Below, piece by piece: positions 12,349 to 64,000 of a stretch of 64,000 nucleotides of DNA (position 1 is its first letter; each line of letters opens with the position of its first letter). Origin of the DNA: Acidobacteriota bacterium (GTDB taxonomy: Bacteria; Acidobacteriota; Blastocatellia; RBC074); the NCBI GenBank assembly GCA_043718445.1, contig JAYSVR010000026.1, positions 2,900-66,899 of the forward strand, written 5' to 3'. The position numbers and the translations under genes were made by a program. Below the pieces are notes generated by a model. That model was not told the DNA's origin and did not search any database. It saw only the letters and a list, made by a program, of their open reading frames with translations.

Positions 12349-12361
12349 TACAAAGCTGTGG

Positions 12362-12392
12362 GCGGCGTAAGCGAATTACGCCGCCCACTCAC
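12362..12392 (+). terminator. GC-rich hairpin (13-bp perfect stem gtgggcggcgtaa/ttacgccgcccac) directly after the TBDR stop codon, with no U-tract
   Basis: Inverted repeat read from the sequence. It ends 2 nt before the LysR start codon. Confidence 0.35.
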
Positions 12393-12394
12393 GC

Positions 12395-13279
12395 ATGCAC
12401 ATCGAAACTCTCAAAACTTTTTGCGACCTGATTGAAACCGGCAGTTTCTCGAAAGCCGCCCAACTCAATTTCGTTTCGCAATCCGCCGTGAGCCAACAAC
12501 TCAAAGCCCTCGAACAACGTTACGGCCAGCAACTCATCGAACGCGGCCACCGGCAAAGCCTCGCGCTGACCGAATCTGGCAAAATCTTTTACCGCGCCTG
12601 TCAGGAACTGCTCGAAAACTTTCGCCTGCTCGAAGAGCAAATGCGCCAGCCCGACGAATCAATCACTGGCACGCTCAAAGTGGCGACTGTTTACAGCATC
12701 GGCCTGCACGAGTTGCCGCCTTATGTGAAGCAGTTCATGAAAGCGCATCCGCAAGTGAAGGTGCATATCGAATACAGCCGCACCGACAAGGTTTATGAAG
12801 CCTGCCAAAACAACGCGATTGATTTCGGCATTGTGGCGCTGCCGTTGCGGCGTCCGAATCTCACGGTGATTCCGTTGCGGCAAGACAAACTCGTCATCGT
12901 TTGTGCGCCCGAACATCGGCTGGCGCGCAAACGCAAAGTCAGTTTCACGCAACTGGCAGGCGAAGATTTCATCGCGTTTGAGCGCGACATTCCTACGCGC
13001 AAGACGATTGACGGCTTGCTGAAACAACACAAAGTCGTAGTGAATCGGGTGATGGAATTCGACAACATCGAAACCCTCAAACGTTCGGTCGAAGTCGGAA
13101 TCGGCCTTTCGATCCTGCCTGAAACAGCCGTCGTCAACGAAGTCAAAAACGGTTTGCTCGCGCAATTGGATTTCAGTGAAGGCACGTTCACGCGCGCCAT
13201 CGGCATCATTCATCGGCGCGGACGTGTCTTCAGCGCAGCGGCGCGTGAGTTCGTGCAAATGCTGACGGCGGCGCGTTGA
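12395..13279 (+). CDS. LysR-family transcriptional regulator
   Basis: The N-terminal HTH is [43 protein letters not shown] 294-aa LysR substrate-binding fold follows. Confidence 0.85.
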
Positions 13280-13431
13280 CGCTGATGGACTGACACCTTA
13301 GACTGCGCGCGTTTTACATAAGCACTCATTCATCCGGCACGTTTCTAAAGCCGGAAAACATTTTCGAACAATTCGTCGGCAGTAGCTTTCTCAAAAAAGG
13401 AGTAGAAGGCGAAAGCGAAGTTATCTTTGTC

Positions 13432-14211
13432 TTGCGCCGCAACCTTATGGCTGAATCGAAAACTGCTTTGCAAAATCGTAGCTTTGGCGCGACTGAGCGG
13501 CGCGAATCATGGTGGACAGAAGTCTTGCCCATCATCATCGTGTTCGGCGGCTTCGGCATTTACGCGACGCTGCGTGCAATGGAAGGCGCACATTATGAAT
13601 GGGGGAATTATCTCTCGCCGTTCTATTCGCCGCTGATTGACCCCGAACATCATTGGCTGCCGAAATGGCTCTCACCCGCGTTGCTGATTCTCGGCGCGCC
13701 CCTGGGCTTTCGCACGACTTGTTACTATTACCGCAAGGCGTATTACCGCGCGTTTTTCATGTCGCCGCCTTCGTGCGCCGTGACAGGACGCGCGGCGGGC
13801 AAGTATTCAGGCGAACGCAAGTTCCCCTTCATCCTGCAAAACCTGCATCGTTACTTTTTGTATCTGGCGCTGATCTTCATCGTCATCTTGTGGTACGACG
13901 CGCTCAAGGCGTTCTTTTTCCAAGACGGCTTCGGCATTGGCGTAGGCTCACTGATTATGGTGCTTAACGTAGTGCTGCTGACGATGTATACGTTTTCCTG
14001 CCACTCGCTGCGGCATCTGGTCGGCGGCAAGCTCGATTGCTTTTCGTGCGAAGTCGCGGGCGGCACGCGCTACAAAACGTGGAAAGGCGTCAGTTCGCTC
14101 AATGAACGCCACATGCAATTCGCATGGGCGAGCCTGCTGTCGGTAGGCTTGTGCGATTTGTATATCACGCTGGTTTCGCGCGGCTATATTACTGATTTAC
14201 GGTTGTTGTGA
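13432..14211 (+). CDS. sdhC: Succinate dehydrogenase/fumarate reductase membrane anchor, cytochrome b subunit (type B, single anchor with about 5 TM helices)
   Basis: Polytopic membrane protein. It lies immediately upstream of the flavoprotein and Fe-S subunits. The start is alternatively at MAESK (13447). Confidence 0.65.
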   Translation: MRRNLMAESKTALQNRSFGATERRESWWTEVLPIIIVFGGFGIYATLRAMEGAHYEWGNYLSPFYSPLIDPEHHWLPKWLSPALLILGAPLGFRTTCYYYRKAYYRAFFMSPPSCAVTGRAAGKYSGERKFPFILQNLHRYFLYLALIFIVILWYDALKAFFFQDGFGIGVGSLIMVLNVVLLTMYTFSCHSLRHLVGGKLDCFSCEVAGGTRYKTWKGVSSLNERHMQFAWASLLSVGLCDLYITLVSRGYITDLRLL

Positions 14212-14390
14212 TGACAAAAGAACCATCTGCAAACGATACGACGCGCGAGATTGACGACAGCGATGACTGGACGGAAGAAGATATGCGCGAGTTTACCGCG
14301 TATTCGATGCGTTGCTTTATTGAAAGGGAAGAAGCGGAAGAAGCTGCCTTTCTTGCTACTGAACTCACACCCCAAGCTGAAAACCAATGA
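14211..14390 (+). CDS. Small, highly acidic protein (59 aa) encoded between sdhC and sdhA
   Basis: MTKEPSANDTTREIDDSDDWTEEDMREFTAYSM... The ATG overlaps the sdhC stop codon (TGATG) and its stop overlaps the sdhA start (ATGA). Translational coupling on both sides argues it is expressed. Confidence 0.35.
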   Translation: MTKEPSANDTTREIDDSDDWTEEDMREFTAYSMRCFIEREEAEEAAFLATELTPQAENQ

Positions 14391-16111
14391 GTGAAAAATA
14401 CGAAACACACGAACACGATGTCTTAATCATCGGAGCAGGCGGCGCGGGTTTGCGCGCTACGATTGCGGCCCTGGCGCAAGGCGCTTCGGTCGGCGTCGTA
14501 TGCAAATCGTTGCTCGGCAAGGCGCACACCGTCATGGCTGAAGGCGGCGTAGCGGCGGCGATGGGTAACGTAGACAGCGCCGACGGCTGGCAGCCGCACT
14601 TCCGCGACACGATGCGCGGCGGCAAGTTCATGAACAACTGGCGCATGGCGCAGCTTCACGCGCAGGAAGCGCCCGACCGCGTGCGCGAGCTTGAGCATTG
14701 GGGCGCGCTGTTTGATCGCACGCCCGACGGAAACATTTTGCAGCGCGCGTTCGGCGGACACACTTATAAACGGCTCTGCCACGTAGGCGACCGCACCGGG
14801 CTTGAGATGATTCGTACGCTGCAAGATCGCGGCGTCGCGCTCGGCGTAGACGTTTTCATGGAATGCACAGTCACCAAGCTGTTGAAAGACGGCGACCGCG
14901 TCGTTGGAGCCTTTGCCTATTGGCGCGAGACGGGGCGCTTCGTAGTTTTCAAAGCCAAAGCCATCGTGGTTTGCACCGGCGGCATCGGCAAGTCTTATCG
15001 CGTCACGTCGAACTCGTGGGAATACACCGGCGACGGACAGGCGCTGGCGTTCGAGGCCGGAGCCGAATTGAAAGACATGGAATTCGTTCAGTTCCATCCG
15101 ACCGGCATGGTCTGGCCGCCGGGCGTCGCGGGCATTCTCGTAACCGAAGCCGTGCGCGGCGAAGGTGGCATCCTGCGCAACAGCAAGGGCGAACGCTTCA
15201 TGGAAAAATACGACCCGAAGCGGATGGAGCTTTCGACGCGCGACGTGGTGGCGCGTTCGATTTACACCGAAGTCAAAGAGGGACGCGGTACGCCACACGG
15301 CGGAGCCTTCTTAGACATTTCGCATAAGCCCGGCGATTACGTGAAAAAGAAGCTGCCGAGCATGTATCACCAATTCAAAGAACTCGCCGACGTAGACATC
15401 ACCAAAGAGCCGATGGAAGTCGGCCCGACGTGCCATTACGTTATGGGCGGCATTAACGTTGACGCCGAGACCGCCGCCGCAACGATTCCTGGTTTATACG
15501 CGGCGGGCGAAGCAGCAGCGGGCTTGCACGGCGCGAATCGTTTGGGCGGCAATTCGCTGTCTGACTTGTTGGTCTTCGGTCGGCGCGCGGGCGAAGCGGC
15601 GGCGCAATACGCGAACAGTTCAAGCGCGGTGACGATTGATAATGCGCAAGTCGAAGCCGCCGCGCGCGAGATGCTCGAACCCTTTGAACGCACGACGGGC
15701 GAGTCGCCATATGACGTTCACGACGAGTTGCAGGATTCGATGCAAAGCCTCGTCGGCATCTTCCGCAACGAAGAAGACATGACGAAAGGCTTGGCGAAAC
15801 TCGAAGAGTTCAAAGAGCGCGCGAAAAAAGTGCGCGTCGTCGGTTCGCGTATGTTCAACCCCGGCTGGCATCTGGCGCGCGACCTGCAAAACATGCTGCT
15901 GACTTCTGAAGCGGTTGCGCTGGCAGCGCGTGAACGCAAAGAGTCGCGCGGTGCACACGCCCGTATAGATTTTGAAAAGCTCGATGATGAAAAGTGGGGC
16001 AAGCAGCACAACATCATCAAGCGCAACGGAGACGGTTCGCTGAATCTTTCACAACGACCGATTTTCGAATTGCCTGACGAACTCAAACAGGTTTTGGAAG
16101 AAGATAAATAA
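14387..16111 (+). CDS. sdhA: Succinate dehydrogenase/fumarate reductase flavoprotein subunit
   Basis: FAD-binding motif VLIIGAGGAGLRA. Further evidence includes the RDTMRGG motif, a HPTG-type covalent FAD His region and 574-aa length. Confidence 0.9.
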   Translation: MSEKYETHEHDVLIIGAGGAGLRATIAALAQGASVGVVCKSLLGKAHTVMAEGGVAAAMGNVDSADGWQPHFRDTMRGGKFMNNWRMAQLHAQEAPDRVRELEHWGALFDRTPDGNILQRAFGGHTYKRLCHVGDRTGLEMIRTLQDRGVALGVDVFMECTVTKLLKDGDRVVGAFAYWRETGRFVVFKAKAIVVCTGGIGKSYRVTSNSWEYTGDGQALAFEAGAELKDMEFVQFHPTGMVWPPGVAGILVTEAVRGEGGILRNSKGERFMEKYDPKRMELSTRDVVARSIYTEVKEGRGTPHGGAFLDISHKPGDYVKKKLPSMYHQFKELADVDITKEPMEVGPTCHYVMGGINVDAETAAATIPGLYAAGEAAAGLHGANRLGGNSLSDLLVFGRRAGEAAAQYANSSSAVTIDNAQVEAAAREMLEPFERTTGESPYDVHDELQDSMQSLVGIFRNEEDMTKGLAKLEEFKERAKKVRVVGSRMFNPGWHLARDLQNMLLTSEAVALAARERKESRGAHARIDFEKLDDEKWGKQHNIIKRNGDGSLNLSQRPIFELPDELKQVLEEDK

Positions 16112-16135
16112 AGGCAAGAGACTCAGTGGCAAACG

Positions 16136-16230
16136 GCATTCTCAATTCCCCATTCTCAATTCTTATACAGAAGAAACATTGGCTTACAGTTTTCTCTTTA
16201 AAAGAATTGAGAATGGGGAATTGAGAATGC
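16136..16230. repeat. Perfect 29-bp-arm inverted repeat (gcattctcaattccccattctcaattctt / aagaattgagaatggggaattgagaatgc) with a 37-nt loop, between sdhA and sdhB
   Basis: Read directly from the sequence. Each arm also contains the direct repeat attctcaatt twice. Confidence 0.6.
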
Positions 16231-16267
16231 CGATGCCGCAATGGTTCGGTTTTAAGGAGACGCATAA

Positions 16268-17008
16268 ATGGCGGAAGCTACACTCAGAATTTATCGTGGC
16301 GATAAAGACGGGGGCGAACACGTCGAATATAAAGTGCCGGTCGCGCCGGGCATGGTCGTGCTCGACGCTTTGCATTACGTGCAAGGCCATCAAGCGCCTG
16401 ACTTGGCGGTGCGCTGGAATTGCAAGGCCGCGAAATGCGGCTCGTGTTCGGGCGAAGTCAATGGCCATCCGAAGCTGATGTGCAAGACGCGGCTCGACGA
16501 TTTGCCGCTCGATCAGCCGATCACGATCAATCCGTTGAAGAGCTTCCCGATCATCAAAGACCTCGTGACCGACGTGTCGTGGAATTACAAGATCAACAAA
16601 AAGATTCCGCCTTTCACGCCCGCGCCCAACACCGAATGGAAGATGCAGCAGGAAGACATTGACCGCGTGCAGGAGTTCCGCAAGTGCATCGAATGCTTCC
16701 TTTGCCAAAACGTATGCCACGTGCTGCGCGACCACGAGAAGAAAGAAGATTTCGGCGGCCCGCGCTTTTTCGTGCGCATTGCCGGACTCGAAATGCATCC
16801 GCTCGACACCGTGTCGCGCACCGCGTTGCTCAAAGACGAACTGGGCATCGGCCTGTGCAACATCACCAAGTGTTGCACAGAGGTTTGCCCTGAAGACATT
16901 CATATCACCGATAACGCGATCATTCCGTTGAAAGAGCGCGTGGTAGATGAGTTTTACGATCCGATCCAAATGATCTGGCGCAAGCTGACGGGCAAAGGCA
17001 AAAAGTAA
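16268..17008 (+). CDS. sdhB: Succinate dehydrogenase/fumarate reductase iron-sulfur subunit
   Basis: 2Fe-2S motif CKAAKCGSCSGEVNG. Cys clusters CIECFLCQNVC and CNITKCCTEVCP follow. Confidence 0.9.
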   Translation: MAEATLRIYRGDKDGGEHVEYKVPVAPGMVVLDALHYVQGHQAPDLAVRWNCKAAKCGSCSGEVNGHPKLMCKTRLDDLPLDQPITINPLKSFPIIKDLVTDVSWNYKINKKIPPFTPAPNTEWKMQQEDIDRVQEFRKCIECFLCQNVCHVLRDHEKKEDFGGPRFFVRIAGLEMHPLDTVSRTALLKDELGIGLCNITKCCTEVCPEDIHITDNAIIPLKERVVDEFYDPIQMIWRKLTGKGKK

Positions 17009-17530: not shown

Positions 17531-18898
17531 ATGCCTTCTTACCTTCGAGCGTGGCTCGTGGCGTTATGCGTCACGGCGGGCGGTGGGCTGATGTCAGCCT
17601 TCGCGCAATCCAAACCGAACATTCTCATCCTTTACGCCGACGACTGGCGGCACGATACGCTGGGCATTGCGGGGCATCCTATCGTCAAGACGCCGCACCT
17701 CGATCAACTGGCGCGTGAAGGCGTTCGCTTCACGCGCGCACACGTGACGACTTCGATTTGCGGCGTCAGCCGCGCGACGTTGTTTACCGGACAATGGATG
17801 TCGCGCCACGGCAACCCCGCGTTCGAGATGTTCAAGACGCCGTTTAGCGAAACCTATCCCGGCTTGTTGCGCGCGAACGGTTATTACACCGGTCACATTG
17901 GCAAGTGGCACAACGGCAAGTTTCCCGCCAAGCATTTCGATTTCGGACGTTCGTATGCGGGAACGCATTTCATCAAGCAACCAGACGGCTCTACGATTCA
18001 CGTCACACAGAAAAACGAAAACGACGCGCTCGAATTTTTACGCGCGCGTCCGAAAGAAAAACCCTTTGTGCTGACGCTTGCGTTTTTCGCTACGCACGCC
18101 GAAGACCAAAATCCGAAGCAGTATTTGTATCAACCACAAAACGCCGCGCTCTATCAAAACGTAACCATCCCGATTCCGAAAACCGCAGGCGACGAATACT
18201 TCAAACTGCTGCCGCCCTTCATCGCCAACGAAAAAAACGAAGGCCGCAATCGCTGGCACTGGCGTTTCGATACGCCGGAAAAATATCAGGAATACATGAA
18301 GGCTTATTACCGGTTGGCGACTGAAGTGGACTCAACCGCAGGGCGCGTTTTAGCTGAACTCAAAGCCCAGGGTTTAGACGACAACACGCTCGTGATTTTC
18401 ACGACTGACAACGGATACTTTCACGGCGAACACGGACTGGCTGACAAATGGTATCCCTATCAAGAATCCATTCGCGTACCGTTGATCGTGCGCGACCCGC
18501 GTATGCCGAAAACCAAACGCGGAGCGATCAATGATGCTTTGGTTTTGAATGTAGATACCGCGCCAACGATTCTTTCCGCCGCTGGCGTCAAGGCTCCGGC
18601 GCGCATGCAAGGCCGAGATTTCGCTGAATTGTATTTGAAAGCAAAGACGAAAGACTGGCGGCAGGATTATTTTTATGAACACGCGACGATTCGCAACATT
18701 GATTTCATCCCTTCGTCTGAGGCGCTGGTGCAACGCGACGTGAAATATCTTTACTGGCCTGATTTCAAATACGAAGAGTTGTTCGATCTCAACCGCGATC
18801 CACACGAAACGCGCAATCTTATCAACGATGCGAAATACGCGAAGCGATTGACAGCCTTGCGACAACGTTTTGCCATCTTAAAAGCCGCTGCGAAATGA
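17531..18898 (+). CDS. Sulfatase-family hydrolase (alkaline-phosphatase superfamily) with signal peptide and a noncanonical C-G-V-S-R formylglycine motif
   Basis: [15 protein letters not shown]...[17 protein letters not shown]...[11 protein letters not shown] are sulfatase hallmarks. Val replaces the usual Pro in the motif. Confidence 0.75.
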
Positions 18899-53656: not shown

Positions 53657-54364
53657 ATGAAAGAAACGTCTGCCACCGCCAGTTTATCGGCTGAAGCCTA
53701 TCTAATTTTGCGCGAAAAGATTTTGCGCGGCGAATTGCCCATCGGCCAAGTCGTCTCGCGCCGCAAAGTCGCCGTCGAACTCGGTATGAGCATGCTGCCC
53801 GTGTCAGAAGCCTTGCAGCGGCTGGAACTGGAAGGCCTGCTCGAAAGTCGCCCGCGCGCCGGTACGCGTGTCAAGATTCCGACCGAAGACGAAGTGCGCG
53901 GCCATTATGTCGTGCGCGAAGCGTTAGAAGTGCAAGCCGCCAAACTTTTTGCCGAAGTCGCCACCGCTTCAGAACGGACTGAATTACAAAAGCTCGCAGC
54001 GCGCGTTGACGCGCTTTCTACCAAGGCGGGCAAAGATCGGTTTCTCTATCTGTCACACCACGAAAAATTGCATCGCCGCATTGCCGAAGGAGCGCATTGC
54101 CAACCGTTATGCGACGCCATCGAAAAAAACCAAGTGTTGGCCTCGACCTGGCTGTGTGTGCCGCGCGCGAAAGCGACGAACGAACCGTCGCGCCGCCATC
54201 AGGACTTAGCCGCTACGTTGTGCAACGAAAGCCCGAAAGTCGCGGCGGAGGCGATGCGCAAACACGTGCAAAATGCGCTGAAAAATACGCTGGGCCGTTT
54301 GGAGTCTTACTTTCTGATACGCCAAACGGCACAAACCGTTTTTACCCGCAGCCGCAAATCGTAG
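53657..54364 (+). CDS. GntR-family (FadR/FCD subfamily) transcriptional regulator
   Basis: Winged HTH segment LREKILRGELPIGQVVSRRKVAVELGMSMLPVSEALQRLELEGLLESRPRAGTRV, plus a helical FCD domain. Confidence 0.85.
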   Translation: MKETSATASLSAEAYLILREKILRGELPIGQVVSRRKVAVELGMSMLPVSEALQRLELEGLLESRPRAGTRVKIPTEDEVRGHYVVREALEVQAAKLFAEVATASERTELQKLAARVDALSTKAGKDRFLYLSHHEKLHRRIAEGAHCQPLCDAIEKNQVLASTWLCVPRAKATNEPSRRHQDLAATLCNESPKVAAEAMRKHVQNALKNTLGRLESYFLIRQTAQTVFTRSRKS

Positions 54365-54651
54365 CTCGCTTGAGCGTTTTCTTTATAGTTCAACTCTGAC
54401 ATACCAGTTGCCAATAGCCTAAGCACTCAGCCACTTAGCGACGCTTTACGCTGGTGCGAAGCAACCGTTGGCTTCGTGTTCCGCACTCTTCCAAACCACA
54501 CGGCGCACTGGCTACGGCATTGAGCCAGCCGCGCGAAGTCGCCTATACTGCGCGCCGCCCCGAACGTACTTAGCCCGGCATTATCGGCACGACATCAATT
54601 TAGCTTCACTGACGGCAAGCAGAGTTTCACTGACTTGAGGAACAGCAAGGT

Positions 54652-57516
54652 ATGGCAGACCAATTCAACTACGACGTATTCCTGAGCCACAGCAGCCACG
54701 ACAAAGACATCGTGCGCGCCGTCGCCGAACGCTTGCGGGCAGACGGGCTGCGCGTGTGGTTGGATGAATGGATATTGAAGCCCGGCGACAGCGTTCCGGC
54801 GAAGATTGACGAAGGCTTGGAGCAGTCGCGCGTGCTGGTGCTGTGCATGTCCGCGCAGGCGTTCGGCTCTGACTGGGCGCAGTTGGAAAGTTATACGTTC
54901 CGGTTCCGCGACCCGCTGAATAAAGGGCGGCGCTTCGTTTCGCTGCGACTCGATGCGGCAGAGATCAAGGCTTCGCTGGCGCAATTCTTCTATATCAACT
55001 GGCTGCCGGAAGCGCGCGAGCAAGAGTATGCCAAGTTGCTTGAAGCCTGCCGCCCGCCTGCTCCGCCCTTGCTTGACCGGCGCGCCGTGGAGCTAGCCTA
55101 TCTGAACCGCTTGCAGGCAGAAGAAGAACTCGATCAAAACCGGCAAACGCGGCGTTACACGCAACTCGGCGGGCAGGCGCAAAAGCTTCGTCCTAAAGTC
55201 TGCGCGGCATACGAACGCCGCTCGGCGCGCGAGGGCGAGCCGCAAGCGCCCGAGCCGGTTGAGAACGTCGTTGAAACAATTCTCACGCTGCGACAAGCCG
55301 CGTTGCTCGGCGAACCCGGGGCCGGCAAAACCACTACGCTTTGGTTGCTGGCCGTCAACTTGCTCGCAACGGCACGCCAAAATTCAGCAGCGCCGCTGCC
55401 ATTGTTGATTCGTTTGGGGCGCTGGACCGAAGCCGAACAAACGCTGCCGGCGTTTATGGCTGCGCAATTGGGGGAACTCGGCGCGCATCTCGAAACGCTC
55501 CTCCAAGAAAAACGCGCGGCGTTGTTGTTAGATGGCTTGAATGAATTGCCCGTCAGCCAGCGCAAAAGCAAATATCCGCAAGTGCAAAAACTCATTAAGC
55601 AATATCCGCAGTTGCTGGCGGTCGTTTCGTGCCGCCAGCTCGATTACGAAGACAAAGATAATGAGCTTAAGCTGGGCTTTGATGTCATCAACATCAAGCC
55701 GCTCGACCCGCTGCGGATGCTTGAGTTTGTGCAACGCGATTTGGGTGATGACGAACTGGGCGAGAAAATGTTTTGGGACGAGTTGGCGGGTAAGGATACG
55801 CAACAAACCTATCAACGCTTTAGGCAGGAGGTCGCCAGCCAATTGAAAGAGCCGGAACAGACTTTCTGGAACGCAGGCCGCTTGCCGTCGGGCGTGTATT
55901 GGGGTTGGCGTTATCGCGACGAAAAAGACGAGAAGCCTGACAACAGCTATTGGGAAAACTGGCTGAAGCGGCGCGACCAGCCCTCGAGCCTGATGCTGAT
56001 GGCGCGTAACCCTTACCTGCTTTCGATGCTGGTTTCAGAATTCGCGGAGGCGCGCAAACTGCCGGACAATCGCGGCGATTTGTTTCGGGCCTTTGTCAAA
56101 CGCTTGCTGCAACGCGAATGTGAGTCGTTGACCGATGAGGCACAACAAACGGCCTTGCGCGGCGAGCACGAAACCTTAAAGCAGAAACTTGCGGAACTCG
56201 CTTTCGCCATGCAGGTTCGCCGGAATGAAGGCACAGAAAGCGATGCCTGGACGGCGCTGCCCAAAGCCGCCGCGCTCGACATTTTGACCGAGCCGCAATT
56301 TTATCTGGCGGGCAACGCCAGCATCCTCAGCCTTAATGAACCGGTGCGCTTTTCGCATCAACTCTTGCAGGAATATTTCGCTGCGCAATTCATGGACATC
56401 CGCTTCCGCGCCGGAGACTTGCAAGCCGAAAAGCTGTGGCCGCGCACCAACTGGTGGGTGCGCACGAACTGGGAAGAGGCCGCAGTGTTATGGGCAGGCT
56501 TGAAAACCGCTGATTGCTCAGAGGTCGTCGAATGGATCGCCGCCGCCAACCCCGAAGTCGCCGCGCAATGCATCGTGCGCAGCGGCGCGCATACGCCTGA
56601 CGCCACGAGCGCACGGTTGCGTGACCAATGGTTGCCGCGTCTGGCTGATCTAAATCTCGAACCTGAACCGCAAGCCCGCGCCGCGCTTGGGCGCGCGTTA
56701 GGGCAAATTATCGGCTTGGATAATCGTCAGGGGATTAGCTTGCCTGACCTCAAGCGCGACGAAAGCTGGATCGAAATTCCCGGCGGTAAGTTTCAATACG
56801 GATTAGCCAATGACGACTGGGCCGCGAAACCGAGCCAGCCAGATTTAGCTACTTTCTGGATCAGCCGCTATCCGGTCACGCACGCGCAATTCCGCTGCTT
56901 TCTGGATGACGCCGAAGGGCACGGCGACTCGCGTTGGTGGGAAGGCTTGGCAGCGAACGAAGACAGCCGCCAACCCGTCGAACCGTCTTTCAAATTCGAC
57001 AATCATCCCCGCGACACGGTGAATTGGTACGAAGCCGTCGCCTTTTGCCGCTGGCTGTCGTGGCGTTGGGGCGGTGGCTATGACTTGCGCAAGATTGACG
57101 ACTGGAAGGTGCGGCTGCCCACCGAGTTTGAATGGGAGAAAGCGGCGCGCGGGACTGACGGGCGGCTCTATCCATACGAGGGCGAATTCGACCCGACCAA
57201 GAGCAACGTGGATAAAACTGGTATTGGCAAGACTAGCGCCGTGGGAATTTTCCCCAACGGTGCGTCGCCTTATGGCGTTGAAGAAATGAGCGGCAACGTG
57301 TGGGAGTGGTGCTTGAGCGATTACGACAAGCCGCAAAAAGACGCACGCAAAGAGAAATTGGGCACGGATAATAATCGTGTCCTGCGGGGCGGCGCGTGGA
57401 ACTACGATCGGGACGACGCGCGCGCCGTCTTTCGTAACCTCAATCCGCCGGGCTTCCGTAACGACGATCTCGGTTTTCGGGTGGTGTTGTTTCGTCCCCC
57501 TTCTGTTCTGCTCTGA
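54652..57516 (+). CDS. TIR - NACHT-like STAND NTPase - FGE/SUMF1(formylglycine-generating-enzyme fold) three-domain protein, a candidate immune sensor/effector
   Basis: TIR: YDVFLSHSSHDKDIVRAVAERLRADGLRVWLDEW...KIDEGLEQSRVLVLCMSAQAFGSDWAQLE, with a Glu in the GLEQS position. NTPase: Walker A GEPGAGKTT, Walker B LLLDGLNEL, sensor VVSCRQ. C-terminus: FGE-sulfatase fold (YPVTHAQF..NHPRDTVNWYEAVAFCRWLS..RLPTEFEWEKAARG..YPYG..SPYGVEEMSGNVWEWC..RVLRGGAWNYDRDDARAVFRN..GFR) but with no Cys in the region where FGE has its catalytic cysteine pair. Confidence 0.85.
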   Translation: MADQFNYDVFLSHSSHDKDIVRAVAERLRADGLRVWLDEWILKPGDSVPAKIDEGLEQSRVLVLCMSAQAFGSDWAQLESYTFRFRDPLNKGRRFVSLRLDAAEIKASLAQFFYINWLPEAREQEYAKLLEACRPPAPPLLDRRAVELAYLNRLQAEEELDQNRQTRRYTQLGGQAQKLRPKVCAAYERRSAREGEPQAPEPVENVVETILTLRQAALLGEPGAGKTTTLWLLAVNLLATARQNSAAPLPLLIRLGRWTEAEQTLPAFMAAQLGELGAHLETLLQEKRAALLLDGLNELPVSQRKSKYPQVQKLIKQYPQLLAVVSCRQLDYEDKDNELKLGFDVINIKPLDPLRMLEFVQRDLGDDELGEKMFWDELAGKDTQQTYQRFRQEVASQLKEPEQTFWNAGRLPSGVYWGWRYRDEKDEKPDNSYWENWLKRRDQPSSLMLMARNPYLLSMLVSEFAEARKLPDNRGDLFRAFVKRLLQRECESLTDEAQQTALRGEHETLKQKLAELAFAMQVRRNEGTESDAWTALPKAAALDILTEPQFYLAGNASILSLNEPVRFSHQLLQEYFAAQFMDIRFRAGDLQAEKLWPRTNWWVRTNWEEAAVLWAGLKTADCSEVVEWIAAANPEVAAQCIVRSGAHTPDATSARLRDQWLPRLADLNLEPEPQARAALGRALGQIIGLDNRQGISLPDLKRDESWIEIPGGKFQYGLANDDWAAKPSQPDLATFWISRYPVTHAQFRCFLDDAEGHGDSRWWEGLAANEDSRQPVEPSFKFDNHPRDTVNWYEAVAFCRWLSWRWGGGYDLRKIDDWKVRLPTEFEWEKAARGTDGRLYPYEGEFDPTKSNVDKTGIGKTSAVGIFPNGASPYGVEEMSGNVWEWCLSDYDKPQKDARKEKLGTDNNRVLRGGAWNYDRDDARAVFRNLNPPGFRNDDLGFRVVLFRPPSVLL

Positions 57517-57619
57517 TCACTGTTCCTGGGCGGTGCGCGAAGCGCAGGCGCGTATGCGCCAGCCCGCTGCGCCGCTTTGGGCGCAGCCGAAAATTTTTTT
57601 GCTTTTTGACACAGTGAGC

Positions 57620-57730
57620 TGACTGCCGCCCCGCAGGTTCGTCATGATGCGTGCCGTCAATCGTAACAACAACTCGCCGGGCAACCGTAACAACAATACG
57701 GGTTTTCGGCTGTTGGTGGCGCGTCCCACT
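57620..57730 (+). pseudogene. Degenerate duplicate of the last about 100 nt (FGE-domain C-terminus) of the upstream gene
   Basis: Encoded AVNRNNNSPGNRNNNTGFRLLVARP parallels the gene tail AVFRNLNPPGFRNDDLGFRVVLFRP. Nucleotide identity is about 75 percent with identical register. Confidence 0.45.
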
Positions 57731-57929
57731 CCTTTCGTCCCTCTTCAAGGGCCTGAGGCACGGGCTTCAGTGCGAGTCGTCCTTTTTGTTTATCAAGAAG
57801 CGAGGCTTCCAGCATTGCTGGCCGAGTAAGCTTTGCCAGCCGCAGCGAAGAACTGAAAGAAGGCGCAGTCGAGTCCCGTCCGCACGGCCAAGCTGAATAA
57901 AGCCAAACACCGTCGGGCGCATACAAAAG

Positions 57930-57959
57930 CAACAGCCGGACACGCGTGTCCGGCTGTTG
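57930..57959 (+). terminator. Perfect 15-bp palindromic hairpin (caacagccggacacg/cgtgtccggctgttg), terminator-like
   Basis: Read from the sequence. It is followed by a weak T-tract tcgtatcc. Confidence 0.35.
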
Positions 57960-58067
57960 TCGTATCCCGCCAGCCAAGTCTTGATAGCCAGTGCAACAGC
58001 GGCTGGCGTATGATGCTCGCGCATCGAAACGGAGGTCACATTTATGGTTTTATCAGGGGTTTCATCA

Positions 58068-58319
58068 ATGCCCATCATCAAGGTACGCGACAAGCTGACG
58101 AGCTTGCCCGAAACGCTGGCGAGTGCGCCGGGCGCGCTTGAAGTGACGCGGCGCGGCAAGCCCGTGCTGGCAATCTTGTCGTGGGAGCTTTACGAATCCA
58201 TCGTTGAAACTTTGGAGATTTTAGGCGACTCAGAACAATTAACGGCGCTGCGTCAGGGCATCAAAGACGCTGACGCAGGACAGGCAATTGAATGGACACA
58301 AGCCAAACAAGGGCTTTAA
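58068..58319 (+). CDS. Phd/YefM-family type II antitoxin
   Basis: MPIIKVRDKLTSLPETL..EVTRRGKPVLAILSWELYESIVETLEIL matches the Phd/YefM pattern. Confidence 0.6.
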   Translation: MPIIKVRDKLTSLPETLASAPGALEVTRRGKPVLAILSWELYESIVETLEILGDSEQLTALRQGIKDADAGQAIEWTQAKQGL

Positions 58320-58350
58320 CATTTGCCTTACCAAATGGAGCATTACAACT

Positions 58351-58602
58351 ATGATACAGACAGCGAGAGCCGAAGTGAGTATTGACGGGCAAGTGCATCT
58401 GCTTGAACCGCTGCACGTCACCCAAACCAGTCCTGCCATTGTGACTTTGTTGAACACTGAGAACGGTTACGCCAAACCCCAAAAAGGCAACGCCCAGACG
58501 ATGTTGCAATTTCTCGAAGAAAACCGTTTGCCTGAAAGCGCCCTGCCTACAACAGACGAGATCGAAGCCCAAATTTTGGAGGCGCGCGAGTCATGGGCGT
58601 GA
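58351..58602 (+). CDS. Antitoxin-family protein (DUF104/AF2212-like N-terminus) partnered with the downstream PIN toxin
   Basis: AEVSIDGQVHLLEPLHVTQTSPAIVTLL resembles the small beta antitoxin fold. The stop overlaps the VapC start. GGAG lies upstream of ATG 58351. Confidence 0.45.
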   Translation: MIQTARAEVSIDGQVHLLEPLHVTQTSPAIVTLLNTENGYAKPQKGNAQTMLQFLEENRLPESALPTTDEIEAQILEARESWA

Positions 58603-59006
58603 ATCCATTGCGGGTTTATTTCGATGCCTGTGTCGCCATTTACCTGATCGAAGAACATCCAACGTTCGGGCCGCTAATTGAGGCGCGACTGGCGCAGACC
58701 CCAGAAGCGGTAATTCAGGTTTCAGAATTGACCGAGATGGAATGTTTGGTGATGCCGCTCAGAAAGCGGAATCAACCGCTGCTCGACAAATTCCGCCGTT
58801 GGTTCGACAAGGTCGAAGTGTTGTCGGTTGAACTTGAGGTGTTCCGCCGAGCGGCTCAGTTACGCGCAGATTTTGCCGGGCTGAAAACTCCCGATGCCAT
58901 TCATCTGGCTACGGCATTACATTATGGCTGTGATGAGTTCTGGACGAATGACAACCGTCTGAGTCACATCGCGCCTGCACTCGTGAAAGACATCCTTTCA
59001 ACGTAA
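58593..59006 (+). CDS. vapC: PIN-domain ribonuclease toxin VapC
   Basis: VYFDACVAIYLIE ... DAIHLATAL ... DEFWTNDNRL show the conserved acidic PIN residues. Confidence 0.8.
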   Translation: MGVNPLRVYFDACVAIYLIEEHPTFGPLIEARLAQTPEAVIQVSELTEMECLVMPLRKRNQPLLDKFRRWFDKVEVLSVELEVFRRAAQLRADFAGLKTPDAIHLATALHYGCDEFWTNDNRLSHIAPALVKDILST

Positions 59007-59135
59007 GGTCAACTCTCAGCGTGTTGGCGTCTCCGTCCGCCTGAATAAAAAGCCCCGCAGTATTGCGTAAATCAGCCCGTGCGCCCTATCTTCTGCGCAC
59101 TCGATAGAATTTGCCGCACTTCAAGGAGACTCCGA

Positions 59136-61400
59136 ATGCCCCAGATAAAAGAACCTGTTCGCACTGAGACGACGTTTCGCCCTTTCATCGCTGATAAAAC
59201 CAACTTGCCTGAGCTAACCATCTTGCCGCTCATTGCGGGTACGTTGTTGGGCATCGTATTCGGCGCGTCGTCGTTGTATCTCGTGCTGAAAACCGGCTTG
59301 ACGGTCAGTGCCTCGATTCCGGTTGCGGTGATTTCGATTACGCTGTTTCGCTTGCTGTCGAAATTCGGTTTGCGCAACGCCTCGATTCTCGAAAACAACA
59401 TCGTGCAAACCGCTGGTTCGGCGGGTGAATCTATCGCGTTCGGGTTTGGCGCGACGATGCCCGCGATCATGATTTTGGGCTTCAACCTTGAATTGATGAA
59501 CGTGATGTTGGTCGGCGTATTGGGCGGCTTGCTCGGCATCTTGATGATGATTCCGTTGCGCCGCGCGTTGATCGTGCAACAACACGGCATACTCAAATAC
59601 CCCGAAGGCACGGCTTGCGCCGAAGTGTTGAAGGCAGGCGCGGATGAGGCTTCGCTCGCCGAAGCCGAAGCCAACGGCACGGCCAGCATCAGCGAAACCA
59701 AAATCGGCGCGCGCACGATCTTCACAGGCTTCGGCATCGGGCTGGTTTATAAATCGCTGATGTCTGCGTTCAAGCTGTGGAAGGAAGTGCCTGAGCGTGT
59801 GTTCGGCGCACCGTTCAAAGGCGGTTCGATCTCGGCTGAAATTTCGCCGGAGTTGTTGGGCGTGGGTTACATCATTGGGCCGTATATTTCGGGCCTGATG
59901 GTCGGCGGCGGCGTGCTGGCTTATCTAGTACTCATTCCCGCTATCAAGTTTTTCGGCGATGCGTTGAAAGAACCGCTCGCGCCCGCCGCTACGTTGATCA
60001 GCGAAATGTCGCCCGACGAAGTGCGCAGTGCTTATGTTTTGTATATCGGCGCTGGCTCAGTCGCCGCCGCTGGCATCATCAGCGTGATTCGTTCGTTGCC
60101 GGTGATTTTGAGCAGCCTCAAAAGCGGCCTGAGCGATTTGCGCGGCGCACAAACCGGCTCCGCCGAAAACCTGCCGCGTACTGAACAAGACGTACCGATC
60201 AAGTGGGTCATCATCGGCATCGCCGCGTTGATGGTGATGATCATGGCTTTTCGCAGCTTGCACATGAATTTTCTCGGCGCGCTGTTGATCGTGTTGTTCG
60301 GCTTTCTCTTCGTCACCGTTTCATCGCGCCTCACGGGCGAAGTCGGTTCGTCATCCAATCCGATTTCGGGGATGACTTACGCGACGCTGTTGCTGACCTG
60401 TTTGATCTTTCTGGTCGTAGGCTGGACGGCTCCGGCTTATTACGTGACGGCGTTGTCGGTCGGCGCGATTGTTTGCATCGCGGCTTCGAATGGCGGCACG
60501 ACTTCGCAGGATTTGAAAACCGGCTTTCTCGTAGGCGCTACGCCACGGCATCAGCAGTTGGCAATTTTGATTGGTTCGCTGGCGTCGGCTTTGGTGTTGG
60601 GGCCGATTCTGTTGCGCTTGAATGACACCGGCACGGTTTATGTTCCGCAGCCAACGACCACCTTGCGCGCAGAAGTTTCAAACTTGCGCGAACGCGCTGC
60701 ACTCACCGGCCCGCAAGCGCGCACCGATGCAAATAGCTATCTCGTCTGGCAGCACACCGATGAAAACGGCGAAGCGAAAAAATACCTCGTCAACGAACAA
60801 GGCGTGCCGGTTTATCTCGTAGACCCCGGCATCAACGGCACCGCCGACAAACGGCCTGACGGTTCGTCGGTGCCGAAATTCGACGCACCGAAAGCGGTGC
60901 TGGTGTCATACATCATCAAAGGCATTTTGAATCACAAACTGCCGTGGGCTTTGGTGTTGATTGGCGTGATGATTACGCTCACGCTCGAATGCGCCGCCGT
61001 GCCTTCGCTCGCGTTTGCTGTGGGCGTTTATCTGCCGCTCTCGACTTCATCACCGATCTTTATCGGCGGAATGATTCGCTGGCTGGTTGATGTTTGGCTG
61101 CGGAAGAAATACGCCACTCGCAAAATGACTGAAGAAGAATTCGTTGCCGAAACCGATAAGAGTCCCGGCGTATTGATGGCGTCGGGTTACATCGCGGGCG
61201 GAGCCATCGCGGGCATCGTCATCGCTTTTCTTGCAGGCGTGCTGACCGACACCAACGTCAAGATCGAACAATGGGCCAACACGAGCAATCCGTTTTTTAG
61301 CGGAGCTAATGCGAACCTGTTTTCGCTATTGCCGTTTGTCGTGCTGATAGTGTTGCTCTATCTCACCGGACGCGAAAAGATTTTGGCGGGCAAGCAATAA
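59136..61400 (+). CDS. OPT-family oligopeptide transporter
   Basis: About 16 TM segments and the OPT hallmark [18 protein letters not shown] lies 7 nt upstream of ATG 59136. Confidence 0.85.
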
Positions 61401-61431
61401 CTCATTCGACTAAAAAGGCTTTCGCGCTAAA

Positions 61432-62109
61432 ATGCTGGTGAGGAGCGAAAAAGCGATGAGCGCATTACGTCAAGCAGTTGCGGTTGAACTTGATTATCCT
61501 GAGACGGATGGCAACCCGATGGCTGAAACCGATTTACATCGTGATCTGATGATTGAGTTGATTGAACAACTCAAAACTCATTTTCAGGATGATCCGCTGG
61601 TTTACGTGTCGGGGAACATGTTGCTCTATTACGAAAAGGGTAACGTGAAGAAACGGCTGGCACCTGATGTATTCGTCGTGCGAGGCGTAACCAAGCATCA
61701 ACGCCGCGTTTACAAACTATGGGAGGAAGGCCGCGCCCCCGACGTAGTTTTTGAAATCTCGTCGCGCGGGACTTGGGGCGAAGACTTGCAAACCAAATGG
61801 CAGCGTTATGCGCAAATGGGCATCCGCGAATACTTCATCTTCGACCCGGAATACGATTATTTAGAGCCCGCGTTGAATGCTTATCGGTTGGTGAATGGCG
61901 AATACAAACAGTTGAAAGCATTGGGCGGCGTAGTGACGAGCAAATCGTTGGGACTGGAATTGGTTGATACCGGAAAGACTTTGCGATTGCGCAATCCAAT
62001 TACGGGACAATTTTTGCCAACCAGGCAAGAATTTATGCAGAAAGCTAACGCAGAAATCGAACGCTTACGTGCTGAACTAGCGTCATTGAAAGGGAAAGAA
62101 TCACGATGA
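61432..62109 (+). CDS. Uma2-family (DUF820) endonuclease
   Basis: PD-(D/E)XK-like core [10 protein letters not shown]...PDVFVV...EISS. The stop overlaps the next gene start (ATGA). Confidence 0.7.
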
Positions 62110-63542
62110 AAAAGTTTTCTCTGACCACTGAACAACAATCACTTAATGACATTTCGCGTCGCTGGTTTATGCAAGAATGCGGCGTTGGCATGGGCGCGAT
62201 TGCGATGAATGCGTTGCTCGCGCAGGGCGGTTACGCAACCAGTCAGGAAACGAATAATCCGCTCGCGCCGAAGAAACCGCATTTCGCGCCGAAAGCAAAA
62301 AACATCATCTATCTGTTTATGGGCGGTGCGCCCAGCCATTTAGAGATGTTTGATTACAAGCCCGAACTCGCCAAGTTTAACGGCACGTTGCCGCCGCCGG
62401 AATTGCTGAAGGGTTATCGCGCGGCGTTCATCAATCCGAACTCGACGCTGTTGGGGCCGAAGTTCAAGTTCGCCAAGTATGGCGAGAGTGGCGCGGAGCT
62501 TTCTGAATTGTTGCCGCATACTTCGACGATTGTGGATGACATCACGATCATCAAATCAATGGTGACCGATGCCTTCAATCACGCGCCCGCGCAGTTGATG
62601 ATGTATACCGGCTCGATGATTTTTGGGCGTCCGAGTTTCGGTTCGTGGGCGACTTACGGATTGGGCAGCGAGTCAAAGGACTTGCCCGCCTTTGTCGTAT
62701 TCACCACCGGCAAGAAAGGGCCAAGCGCGGGCAACAGTTGTTGGGGCACAGGCTTTTTGCCTACGGTTTATCAGGGCGTGCAGTTCCGTTCGAGCGGCGA
62801 CCCGGTGTTGTATCTCTCGAACCCGCGCGGCGTAGACGAGGCGCTGCAAAAAGATTCGCTGACCACGTTGCGCAAATTGAACGAGTTGCGATTGGACGCA
62901 ACGGGCGATCCTGAAATTGCCACGCGCATCAATTCTTACGAGATGGCGTTTCGTATGCAAAAGGCTGCGCCCGAAGCGATGGACATCACCAAAGAGCCTA
63001 AACATATTCTGGAAATGTACGGCGCAGAACCGGGCAAGTCTTCGTTTGCGAATAATGCGCTGCTGGCGCGGCGCTTGGTCGAACGCGGCGTGCGGTTTGT
63101 TCAGTTGCACCACGAGTCGTGGGATCAACACGGCTCGCTGGTCAAAGACATCAAGCAAAATTGTTTAGACACCGATCAGGCTTGCGCGGCATTGGTGAAG
63201 GATTTGAAACAACGCGGAATGCTTGACGATACGCTGGTGATTTTCGGCGGCGAGTTCGGACGTACGCCAATGGTGCAAGGCGGCGATGACGGACGCGATC
63301 ATCATCCGAATGCGTTCACGATGTGGCTGGCAGGCGGCGGAATGAAACGCGGGCTGACGATTGGCAAGACCGACGACTTGGGTTTTAACGTCGTCGAAGA
63401 CCGCGTACACGTGCATGATTTGCACGCGACGATCTTGCACTTGTTGGGCTTCGATCACGAAAAACTGACTTATCGCTTTCAAGGCCGCGACTTCCGCCTG
63501 ACCGACGTACACGGTGTGGTCGTAGACAAAATTTTGGCCTGA
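62106..63542 (+). CDS. DUF1501-domain (sulfatase-like fold) protein with a TAT signal
   Basis: Twin-arginine motif [21 protein letters not shown]1501 conserved blocks [17 protein letters not shown] and GGEFGRTP. Confidence 0.8.
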
Positions 63543-63592
63543 CGAAATTCCGGGTTGACGAAATCTCAACTTAGAAATAGTCTAAACAACGA

Positions 63593-64000
63593 AATGACGA
63601 GATTGGCAAGCCACAAAGTGATGTCGCTGGTGCAAACGCAGGGTCTGAAAATGACGCCGCAACGCCGTGCGATTGTCGAATACCTGCAAACGGCGAAGAC
63701 CCATCCGACGGCTGATGAAGTGATGACGGCGGTCAACCGCAAGTTCCCTATGACTTCGCGGGCGACGGTTTACAACACGTTAAACTGGCTGAAAGAAAAC
63801 GGGATGGTCAAGGAAGTGTTCGAGGGCGGCGTAGTCCATTTCGACCCGCACACCGCCGCGCATCATCACTTTGTTTGCAACAAGTGCGGCAAAGTCGAAG
63901 ACGTAGATTGTTCGGCGATCAACGAAATTAAGCTGTGTACGTTGCCCGATCTTCAAAAAGTCGAGACGATGGAAGTGACGCTGCGTGGGCTTTGCGCCGC
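63593..64000 (+). CDS. fur: Fur-family metalloregulator, partial (runs off the right window edge)
   Basis: MTPQRRAIVEYLQTAKTHPTADEV..VYNTLNWL..HHHFVC.KCGKV matches the Fur DNA-binding and metal-site motifs. No stop codon falls inside the window. Confidence 0.7.

Follow-up and report, generated by a model that had tools for sequence, protein, structure and literature searches.

Do the conflict-type genes at positions 54365–62109 of the window, the 64-kb stretch of DNA analysed here as a whole, form a defence island, and what is the partial copy of a receptor gene's 3' end that lies among them? An earlier interpretation made from the letters alone (the sequence-only reading) listed a TIR-NACHT-FGE gene, a pseudogenised duplicate of its 3' end, a Phd/YefM antitoxin, a toxin–antitoxin pair, a Uma2 gene and the neighbouring DUF1501 gene, and took the cluster for a defence island. 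Most of the genes in that list are real, so that the observation was partly confirmed and its interpretation partly supported. Our comparison of the window with related loci (designated by L-numbers, for example L001, L012, L019 and L090) points to a small variable slot in a Blastocatellia-type genome, containing an NLR-like (NOD-like receptor) gene with a relic diversity-generating retroelement (DGR) and a Phd antitoxin orphaned by the swap of its toxin for another gene pair. We assign this reading a probability of roughly 0.78. All genes of the interval lie on the + strand, as do the other features described below unless indicated.

Variable and template repeats of the receptor gene

The receptor gene (54652–57516, Pfam) encodes a TIR-NACHT-FGE(CLec) NLR-like protein of 954 amino acids (aa). 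As the sequence-only reading had stated, the three domains occupy a single open reading frame (ORF), with scores of 85 bits for TIR_2, 36 bits for NACHT and 169 bits for FGE-sulfatase. According to Pfam, the TIR domain covers 54676–55041, the NACHT domain 55297–55653 (PF05729, 35.9 bits against a cut-off of 26.7) and the FGE-like lectin domain 56761–57486, giving the layout of an N-terminal effector (TIR_2) and a C-terminal sensor (FGE/CLec). The Walker A motif GEPGAGKTT and the sequence LLLDGLNE (Walker B) are readable in the NACHT translation, and Glu79 within SDWAQLE is a candidate catalytic residue of the TIR domain.

An 85-nucleotide (nt) copy of the 3' end of this gene is located at 57649–57733, is 74% identical to 57420–57504 and is the sole such copy in the window. 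The copy reads AAT CGT AAC AAC AAC TCG CCG GGC AAC CGT AAC AAC AAT ACG GGT TTT CGG and is rich in Asn codons (AAC/AAT), while the gene's 3' end reads TTT CGT AAC CTC AAT CCG CCG GGC TTC CGT AAC GAC GAT CTC GGT TTT CGG. Comparison of codons 911–951 of the gene (57381–57504) with the copy revealed mismatches at 10 of 18 adenines and at 16 of 73 other sites (p = 0.007). Against the full-length template repeat (TR) of L019, the same part of the gene differs at 15 of 27 adenines and 15 of 98 other sites (p = 5e-5), and the variable repeat (VR) of L019 differs from its own TR at 15 of 27 adenines and 9 of 98 others (p = 9e-7). Between the window and L019, the TRs differ at 3 of 91 sites and the VRs at 29 of 91. 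Analysis of 120 homologues gave a consistent pattern: when entropy was calculated over codons 911–949 and an adenine-codon position was defined by an adenine in TR positions 1–2, the 16 adenine-codon positions averaged 3.27 bits and the 23 others 0.94 bits, the two sets being without overlap, with all 16 above all 23 (p = 8e-8). The hypervariable codons are 917–940 (57400–57471). The copy and about 300 nt on its 3' side also travel with the gene, despite the unrelated contexts of its closest homologues. Because the mismatches are biased to adenines and the TRs are far better conserved than the VRs, the copy reads as a truncated TR of a DGR, and the last ~40 codons of the gene as its VR, an assignment to which the VRs of L090 also contribute.

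A complete DGR cassette is present in L090, comprising an RVT_1 reverse transcriptase (RT), bAvd, a TR with its tail and three family targets, and this locus holds a homologue 51% identical to the window receptor. The VR/TR mismatches of its three targets fall at adenines in 18 of 19, 15 of 17 and 13 of 14 cases. The order in L090 is tail, then avd, then RT, with avd inverted; L086 has the repeat, the tail and the inverted avd, without the RT. The targets of L090 (5933–19246) are three EAD8-bearing NACHT-FGE proteins accompanied by an EAD8-patatin partner, and Uma2, Trypco1 and a GntR gene lie just upstream of the DGR. Other loci are disrupted. In L088 (8001–15582; also in L089), an IS200/IS605 Y1 transposase gene (11211–12140) lies between two TIR-NACHT-FGE paralogues in convergent orientation and occupies the position of the RT/Avd/TR core of L090, with only the element that follows the receptor stop codon left on each side. 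In L091, a 74-aa ORF between two TIR-NACHT-FGE genes (8248–8472) is a C-terminal fragment of a DGR RT, 69% identical to the L090 RT, and represents another decayed cassette.

The window retains several putative cis elements of such a cassette. The VR ends in GTCCCCCTTCT (57494–57504), which resembles an initiation of mutagenic homing (IMH) site, and the TR ends in the IMH*-like GTCCCACTCCT (57723–57733); L090 shows the same distinction between the two ends. The TR, recognised by its similarity to the gene's 3' end and by comparison with the L019 TR, is short by ~41 nt at its 5' end relative to L019, L086 and L090. Immediately 3' of the gene, a post-VR element (57517–57611), defined by nucleotide conservation and fold (z = -2.2), holds a pair of short GC hairpins, TGCGC-GAA-GCGCA and GGCGC-GTAT-GCGCC, as well as a terminator-like stem with a T-run after it. 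It is 89–94% nt identical in eight homologous loci whose proteins are only 51–84% identical, and it is found 3' of all three L090 targets. The TR is followed by a spacer-like tail (57734–57930), which stands directly 3' of the TR in all TR-bearing homologous loci and is 84–90% nt identical to those of L019, L084, L086 and L090. In the tail, blocks of conservation are seen beside a variable hairpin in which some pairs are compensated, in five sequences only and with mostly invariant pairs, for which reason a consensus fold of the spacer was dropped as a structural claim. Next comes a hairpin with a perfect 13-bp stem, then CTTTTG (57931–57958, - strand), the best terminator-like site of the region. 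This hairpin is common to L019 and L084, which have neither RT nor Avd, and sits where the inverted avd (in L090 with the RT beyond it) lies in loci retaining them; the avd of L086 ends ~8 nt before the hairpin position of the window. The hairpin marks the edge of the lost DGR core.

Selection on the TR, the spacer and the post-VR element, suggested by a conservation higher than that of the coding region, was considered and dropped, the flanks of L019 and L084 being 88% nt identical and their TR-spacer 84%. The noncoding parts are not unusually slow, and the NLR gene evolves fast: in the slot that L019 and L084 share, the NLR proteins are 59% identical and the NACHT region is unalignable. The closest receptor homologues (84% and 78% aa identity) have unrelated genomic contexts and stand solitary among metabolic genes. 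More than 1000 homologues were found in Acidobacteria and Chloroflexi, with swapped N-terminal effectors (TIR, alpha/beta-hydrolase, trypsin-like, SEFIR and EAD8). Judged from these comparisons, the receptor gene is fast-evolving and mosaic.

Cassette turnover between the GntR and OPT genes

The left anchor of the slot is a conserved GntR/FCD regulator gene (53657–54364, Pfam), the last gene of a LigB / RraA / LmbE / DUF6282 catabolic block. Its product shares 98% aa identity with that of L001 and 76% with those of L023–L040, and the upstream genes are the same. The right anchor of the main slot is an oligopeptide transporter (OPT) gene (59079–61400; 309 bits in Pfam, 325 bits for TIGR00733), which was missing from the sequence-only reading although, at 2.3 kb, it accounts for 30% of the interval and separates the conflict genes into two clusters. 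This housekeeping gene is 93–95% aa identical in L001 and L012, and its nearest relatives are found in Acidobacteriota/Blastocatellia metagenome-assembled genomes (MAGs). A 221-aa antisense ORF within it (59072–59737, - strand) is open in L001 and L012 too and is most likely a shadow ORF of the conserved transporter gene.

Comparison of the window with L001 revealed that the two are collinear, with 89–93% nt identity across the flanks (5 kb on each side of the interval), except for three segments. The breakpoints against L001 and L012 are sharp, at 55045–58062, 58341–59055 and 61403–62156, and L001 retains the GntR, Phd, OPT, Uma2 and DUF1501 genes. In place of the first segment (NACHT-FGE and tail), L001 carries a frameshifted TIR stub, a zinc-ribbon-FGE gene, a gene for a DUF4365 nuclease-domain protein and a 129-aa ORF. 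The stub (L001 5156–5584), an ORF of 142 aa that is confined to TIR and has suffered an insertion and a frameshift, is a 5' remnant of a TIR-NACHT-FGE gene and is 62% aa identical to the window TIR though the flanks are 98% identical. The second segment (ORF83 and PIN) does not occur in L001, where a ParE/RelE toxin gene overlaps the conserved Phd gene. L012 lacks the third (Uma2 with the initial ~17 codons of DUF1501), its OPT gene being followed directly by DUF1501. The distant relatives keep the LigB / RraA / LmbE / DUF6282 / GntR block; five of them (in the range L023–L037) have IclR and rhamnose-catabolism genes directly 3' of GntR, and a sixth, L028, has another insert consisting of a VIT-VWA protein and small ORFs. 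The L028 insert (11077–14894) encodes an 865-aa VIT-VWA protein and two small ORFs, of which one is a homologue of the L001 ORF of 129 aa; a 127-aa Cys/His-rich ORF there looks HNH-like by eye and is without a Pfam or PADLOC match. Since gene content differs among the relatives, perfect synteny, which had been named as the finding that would overturn a variable region, is refuted, and the variable-region reading stands. What the interval amounts to is a small hotspot of cassette turnover, with Uma2 as an indel apart from it.

The Phd/YefM antitoxin gene (58068–58319) was called correctly, with scores marginally over threshold (Pfam 30.0 against 29.8; TIGR01552 22.4 against 20.8). Its ORF opens at 58044, and homology together with the L001 orthologue favours a start at 58068. 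The product is 89% aa identical to the L001 Phd, which is followed by the overlapping ParE/RelE toxin gene (ParE_toxin, 42 bits); a cognate toxin next to Phd is absent in the window and present in L001. A blastn block (58063–58340) matches L001 9350–9626, where ParE starts at 9603, leaving in the window a ParE stub (58316–58340) that corresponds to the first ~24 nt of L001 ParE and forms the left junction of the ORF83-PIN replacement. The window Phd is therefore read, by comparison with L001, as an orphan: an apparently mobile ORF83-PIN (VapBC-like) pair has displaced its ParE partner.

This pair consists of an 83-aa ORF (ORF83, 58351–58602), the putative antitoxin gene, and a gene for a PIN-domain (VapC-like) toxin (58593–59006; PF01850 in Pfam, 58 bits). 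The sequence-only reading had described a DUF104-like antitoxin with a VapC PIN toxin; the PIN domain and the pairing held, and the DUF104 label is without support. ORF83 gave no match in Pfam, NCBIfam or PADLOC even at E<=1, none of its 26 homologues at 71–100% identity has a precomputed Pfam domain, and its AlphaFold model is poor (pLDDT 66, pTM 0.29). The gene overlaps the PIN gene by 10 nt, an overlap repeated in L092, and the overlapping pair recurs in a different context in L092–L095. In L092 and L093 (579–4662), the bicistron lies directly downstream of the gene for a 1128-aa TIR-WD40 protein, near a Y1 transposase. Because the same overlapping pair stands beside a TIR-WD40 protein in L092, ORF83-PIN would be a mobile bicistron, which fits a VapBC-like module with presumed PIN toxicity.

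To the right of OPT, the Uma2 gene (61432–62109) encodes a PD-(D/E)XK-type protein, as had been claimed (Pfam 78.5 bits against a cut-off of 27), and matches the PADLOC candidate family PDC-S03. It belongs to an indel cassette (61403–62156) that is present in L001 and absent in L012. The reported overlap of its stop with the start of the DUF1501 gene (62106–63542) is seen as ATGA at 62106–62109, and the DUF1501 protein (532 bits) carries the twin-arginine motif SRRWFMQ in its N-terminus, in agreement with the TAT-type assignment. The first ~17 codons of DUF1501, 5' of this motif, are wholly different with and without Uma2 (62106–62156 versus L012 3625–3679), so that both the start codon and the signal-peptide n-region come from the Uma2 cassette.

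Elsewhere in the window, the sdhA/sdhB-like genes that had been set against the interval are real (14387–17008), and no paralogues of the interval genes were found. An Rfam search of 54000–64000 at a permissive threshold returned only a chance snoRNA match (E = 0.056), and a promoter scan gave 5 sites against 3.5 expected from shuffled sequences, no better than the shuffles.

Weighing the readings of the locus

Several observations weigh against the reading given at the outset. With regard to the retroelement, tblastn of the L090 RT against the 64-kb window reached a best E of 0.04 and a scan for the YxDD motif was empty, and tblastn of the L090 and L086 Avd against the window yielded no match. 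The window VR and TR differ also at 11 non-adenine sites among 77 comparable positions, and a total of 11–16 non-adenine mismatches departs from the strict adenine-only pattern of an active pair. With regard to the interval, no complete known defence system was found with PADLOC profile models, the system rules of PADLOC and DefenseFinder not having been applied, and in GC content and GC content at third codon positions (GC3) the genes for TIR-NACHT-FGE, Phd, ORF83 and PIN deviate from 40 background ORFs by no more than 1.6 standard deviations. In addition, CLec domains linked to STAND proteins (signal transduction ATPases with numerous domains) are uncharacterised (PMC10907252), no phage-defence phenotype has been published for any member of the FGE-sensor NACHT class, and we infer the ligand, the TIR activity and the PIN toxicity alike.

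Because RT and Avd are unmatched in the window, the local DGR is incomplete, a relic. The window VR was probably last written from a template other than the local TR, since the two carry the non-adenine mismatches described above and an L090-type TR is a better fit to parts of the VR. A dating of the element as long dead from those mismatches was rejected on the same ground, that the local TR is probably not the VR's last template. Comparison of the L019 VR (4158–4282) with the L086 TR (10926–11050), which comes from another MAG, revealed 17 adenine and 2 non-adenine mismatches, and the fit to its own adjacent TR is poorer, with 14 and 8. As the L019 VR fits the TR of L086 better than its own, these repeats suggest trans templating or TR replacement in this clade.

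It is in this light that a DGR still acting on the window gene in trans, with the local TR-spacer module as a usable satellite template, has to be considered, a possibility that we regard as unlikely. The L019–L086 fit speaks for it, as do the better fit of parts of the window VR to the L090-type TR, the trans diversification reported for Thiohalocapsa (PMC10907252) and the intact IMH-like end and post-VR element of the window; however, the window TR lacks its 5' 41 nt, the TR of L084 has lost 24 nt internally with no matching loss in the L084 VR, and the window VR shows at least nine non-adenine mismatches with every available TR. Moreover, the TR-spacer is nearly as similar between L019 and L084 (84% nt) as the flanking housekeeping gene is (88% nt), so that selection on RT-less TRs need not be invoked. 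Viral contigs scanned for the TR core gave no match, and therefore no sign of a phage-borne DGR. A bolder form of the same idea, in which RT-less modules of target, TR, spacer and hairpin would be functional satellites and one master RT/Avd elsewhere in the genome would serve several dispersed NLR-like receptors, each having a template of its own close by, is doubtful; if true, a distributed DGR network would diversify an entire TIR-NACHT-lectin sensor repertoire in soil Acidobacteria.

Turning to the interval as a whole, the name defence island overstates it, and a small variable slot describes it instead. The claim of an island stood as far as content is concerned, which is variable against relatives, and fell short in that no complete known system was detected. 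PADLOC models matched the TIR domain of the receptor (the TIR-NLR model at 23 bits, in the TIR part only, together with a weak PDC-S60 match at E = 1e-3) and offered the PDC-S03 candidate for Uma2; they gave no match for Phd, ORF83 or PIN and did not reveal two or more clustered recognised systems. A proposed test of base composition was borne out for Uma2, the only compositionally deviant gene of the interval (GC 0.48, z = -3.2; GC3 z = -2.6), and failed for the remaining conflict genes, which are ordinary. Conflict-type sequence makes up ~5.4 kb of the 7.7 kb, ARAGORN detected no tRNA anywhere in the window, and the genes identified in the interval include neither an integrase nor a transposase.

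One might go further and deny any special region, holding that these genomes abound in toxin–antitoxin, Uma2 and STAND genes, which came together by chance through ordinary indels. Such an account can draw on the small number of conflict-type genes (just five, divided by a housekeeping transporter), on the normal GC and GC3 of all but Uma2, on the lack of an integrase, a transposase, a tRNA or a system called by PADLOC models, and on the closest homologues of the NLR gene, solitary as they are among metabolic genes. We consider it rather improbable in view of three independent cassette-level changes within 8 kb whose 5-kb flanks are collinear at 89–93% nt, of a post-GntR position that has received different inserts in three lineages, and of the ORF83-PIN pair standing again beside a TIR protein in another genome. 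The small variable slot remains the preferred description.

The 3'-end copy had been taken by the sequence-only reading for a pseudogenised duplicate. An 85-nt copy does exist; a plain pseudogene it is not, in our rereading as a DGR TR relic. That it would be an ordinary decaying tandem duplicate, functionless past and present, is very improbable and largely refuted already: although the copy is short, internally deleted, without an intact ORF of the gene and situated directly downstream, it is rich in Asn codons, its adenines attract the mismatches, it is far better conserved than the VR that resembles it, and the same element with the same tail adjoins avd and RT in L086 and L090.

Hardly credible at all is an enzymatic C-terminal domain (SUMF1/EgtB/PvdO) with a role in sulfatase maturation or thiol-histidine chemistry, since the strong Pfam FGE-sulfatase match, the weak EgtB and SenA model matches and the sulfatase gene inside the window (17531–18898) are countered by NCBIfam scores all far under their cut-offs (EgtB, for example, 76 against 360), by a segment without cysteine and hypervariable across the family where FGE has its catalytic cysteine pair (none in the last 60 residues of the receptor), by a separate true FGE with the Cys pair in L012, and by the fusion of the domain to TIR and NACHT. 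The L012 protein (35–1168), a true FGE, is secreted, has the catalytic Cys pair GGSFLCSDQYCERY and is encoded directly upstream of OPT. The window sulfatase gene lies 40 kb away, and the true FGE of L012 is unrelated in role to the FGE-like domain of the NLR. A search of PDB sequences with the receptor matched ToxD, EgtB, SUMF2 and the DGR variable protein TvpA (2y3c, E=1e-11); the sequence homology of the lectin domain to TvpA, a classical DGR target, counts in favour of the DGR reading.

Proposed model and comparison with known systems

In the model that we favour, conflict-type cassettes have come and gone between the conserved GntR and OPT genes, and Uma2, a low-GC segment between OPT and DUF1501, is an indel of its own. 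The non-catalytic FGE/C-type-lectin domain of the receptor may bind an invader-derived ligand, as its domain composition suggests, whereupon the NACHT NTPase would oligomerise and the TIR domain (candidate Glu79) would act as the effector, most likely by NAD+ cleavage, or make a signal. In complete relatives, RT and Avd would copy the TR-spacer RNA with adenine-specific errors and the copy would be written into the VR, diversifying ~16 residues of the putative binding site. In the window, the Avd/RT core is missing, and any current diversification would need an RT and a TR elsewhere in the genome.

On this reading, the homologues that carry the NCBI name SUMF1/EgtB/PvdO family nonheme iron enzyme need an annotation correction: they form a family of more than 1000 NLR-like receptors in which a retroelement writes the binding site. 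The window also shows a receptor outliving its diversifier, with RT and Avd lost and the receptor, the template relic and the cis elements remaining, and the VapBC-like pair that replaced ParE behind a retained Phd is a clean example of cassette turnover.

Related systems have been described. Among bacterial NACHT sensors, the 'FGS domain type' is one of two of antigen-receptor type, and its diversification by DGRs was considered likely (Kibby et al., 10.1101/2022.07.19.500537). FGS-DGR links in conflict systems were noted by Kaur et al. 2020 (PMC7159879), and Dore et al. 2024 (PMC10907252) reported the diversification by DGRs of NACHT/nSTAND-CLec targets, some of which have TIR effectors, together with incomplete loci and trans activity. 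FGE-sulfatase sensors also occur among defence-associated STANDs (2026 survey, PMC13581612).

The toxin–antitoxin genes of the window resemble VapBC modules in the PIN toxin and its small upstream overlapping gene, but the putative VapB falls outside the described families. They resemble Phd-ParE modules in the Phd antitoxin, whose L001 orthologue precedes ParE/RelE, whereas the window toxin is reduced to a ~24-nt stub. With defence islands and hotspots, the region shares cassette turnover between conserved anchors and conflict-type content; it differs in being very small, in lacking mobile-element genes and a recognised complete system, and in its slight compositional signal.

The receptor has the same effector-NACHT-sensor layout as the bNACHT anti-phage proteins, among whose effectors TIR is found, although no experimentally tested protein cited there is stated to have an FGS sensor (10.1101/2022.07.19.500537). 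Treponema denticola TvpA and Bordetella phage Mtd share the FGE-type C-type-lectin fold and likewise carry the VR at the very C-terminal end; these, however, are surface or tail-fibre proteins without an NTPase or effector, whereas the window lectin would be the sensor of a cytoplasmic STAND protein. The closest likeness in kind is to the DGR STAND/NACHT-CLec loci (PMC10907252, clade 5D; PMC7159879), which have the same TIR-NACHT-FGE/CLec target with the VR in the lectin domain. The AAC-rich TR, the incomplete loci and the trans templating are likewise the same (PMC10907252), and the likeness extends, in the relative L090, to several paralogous targets and EAD8 adaptor partners. The differences lie in the host, Acidobacteria (Blastocatellia) here and Thiohalocapsa or cyanobacteria there; in the window copy, which lacks RT and Avd and has a truncated, non-cognate TR; and in the inverted avd between TR-spacer and RT in this clade (L090, L086). 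DGR-diversified NACHT-lectin sensors are thus already published, and the window is a partly decayed case in an Acidobacteria lineage. It adds no new class of system, and its value is that of a well-resolved instance and a pointer to complete loci such as L090.

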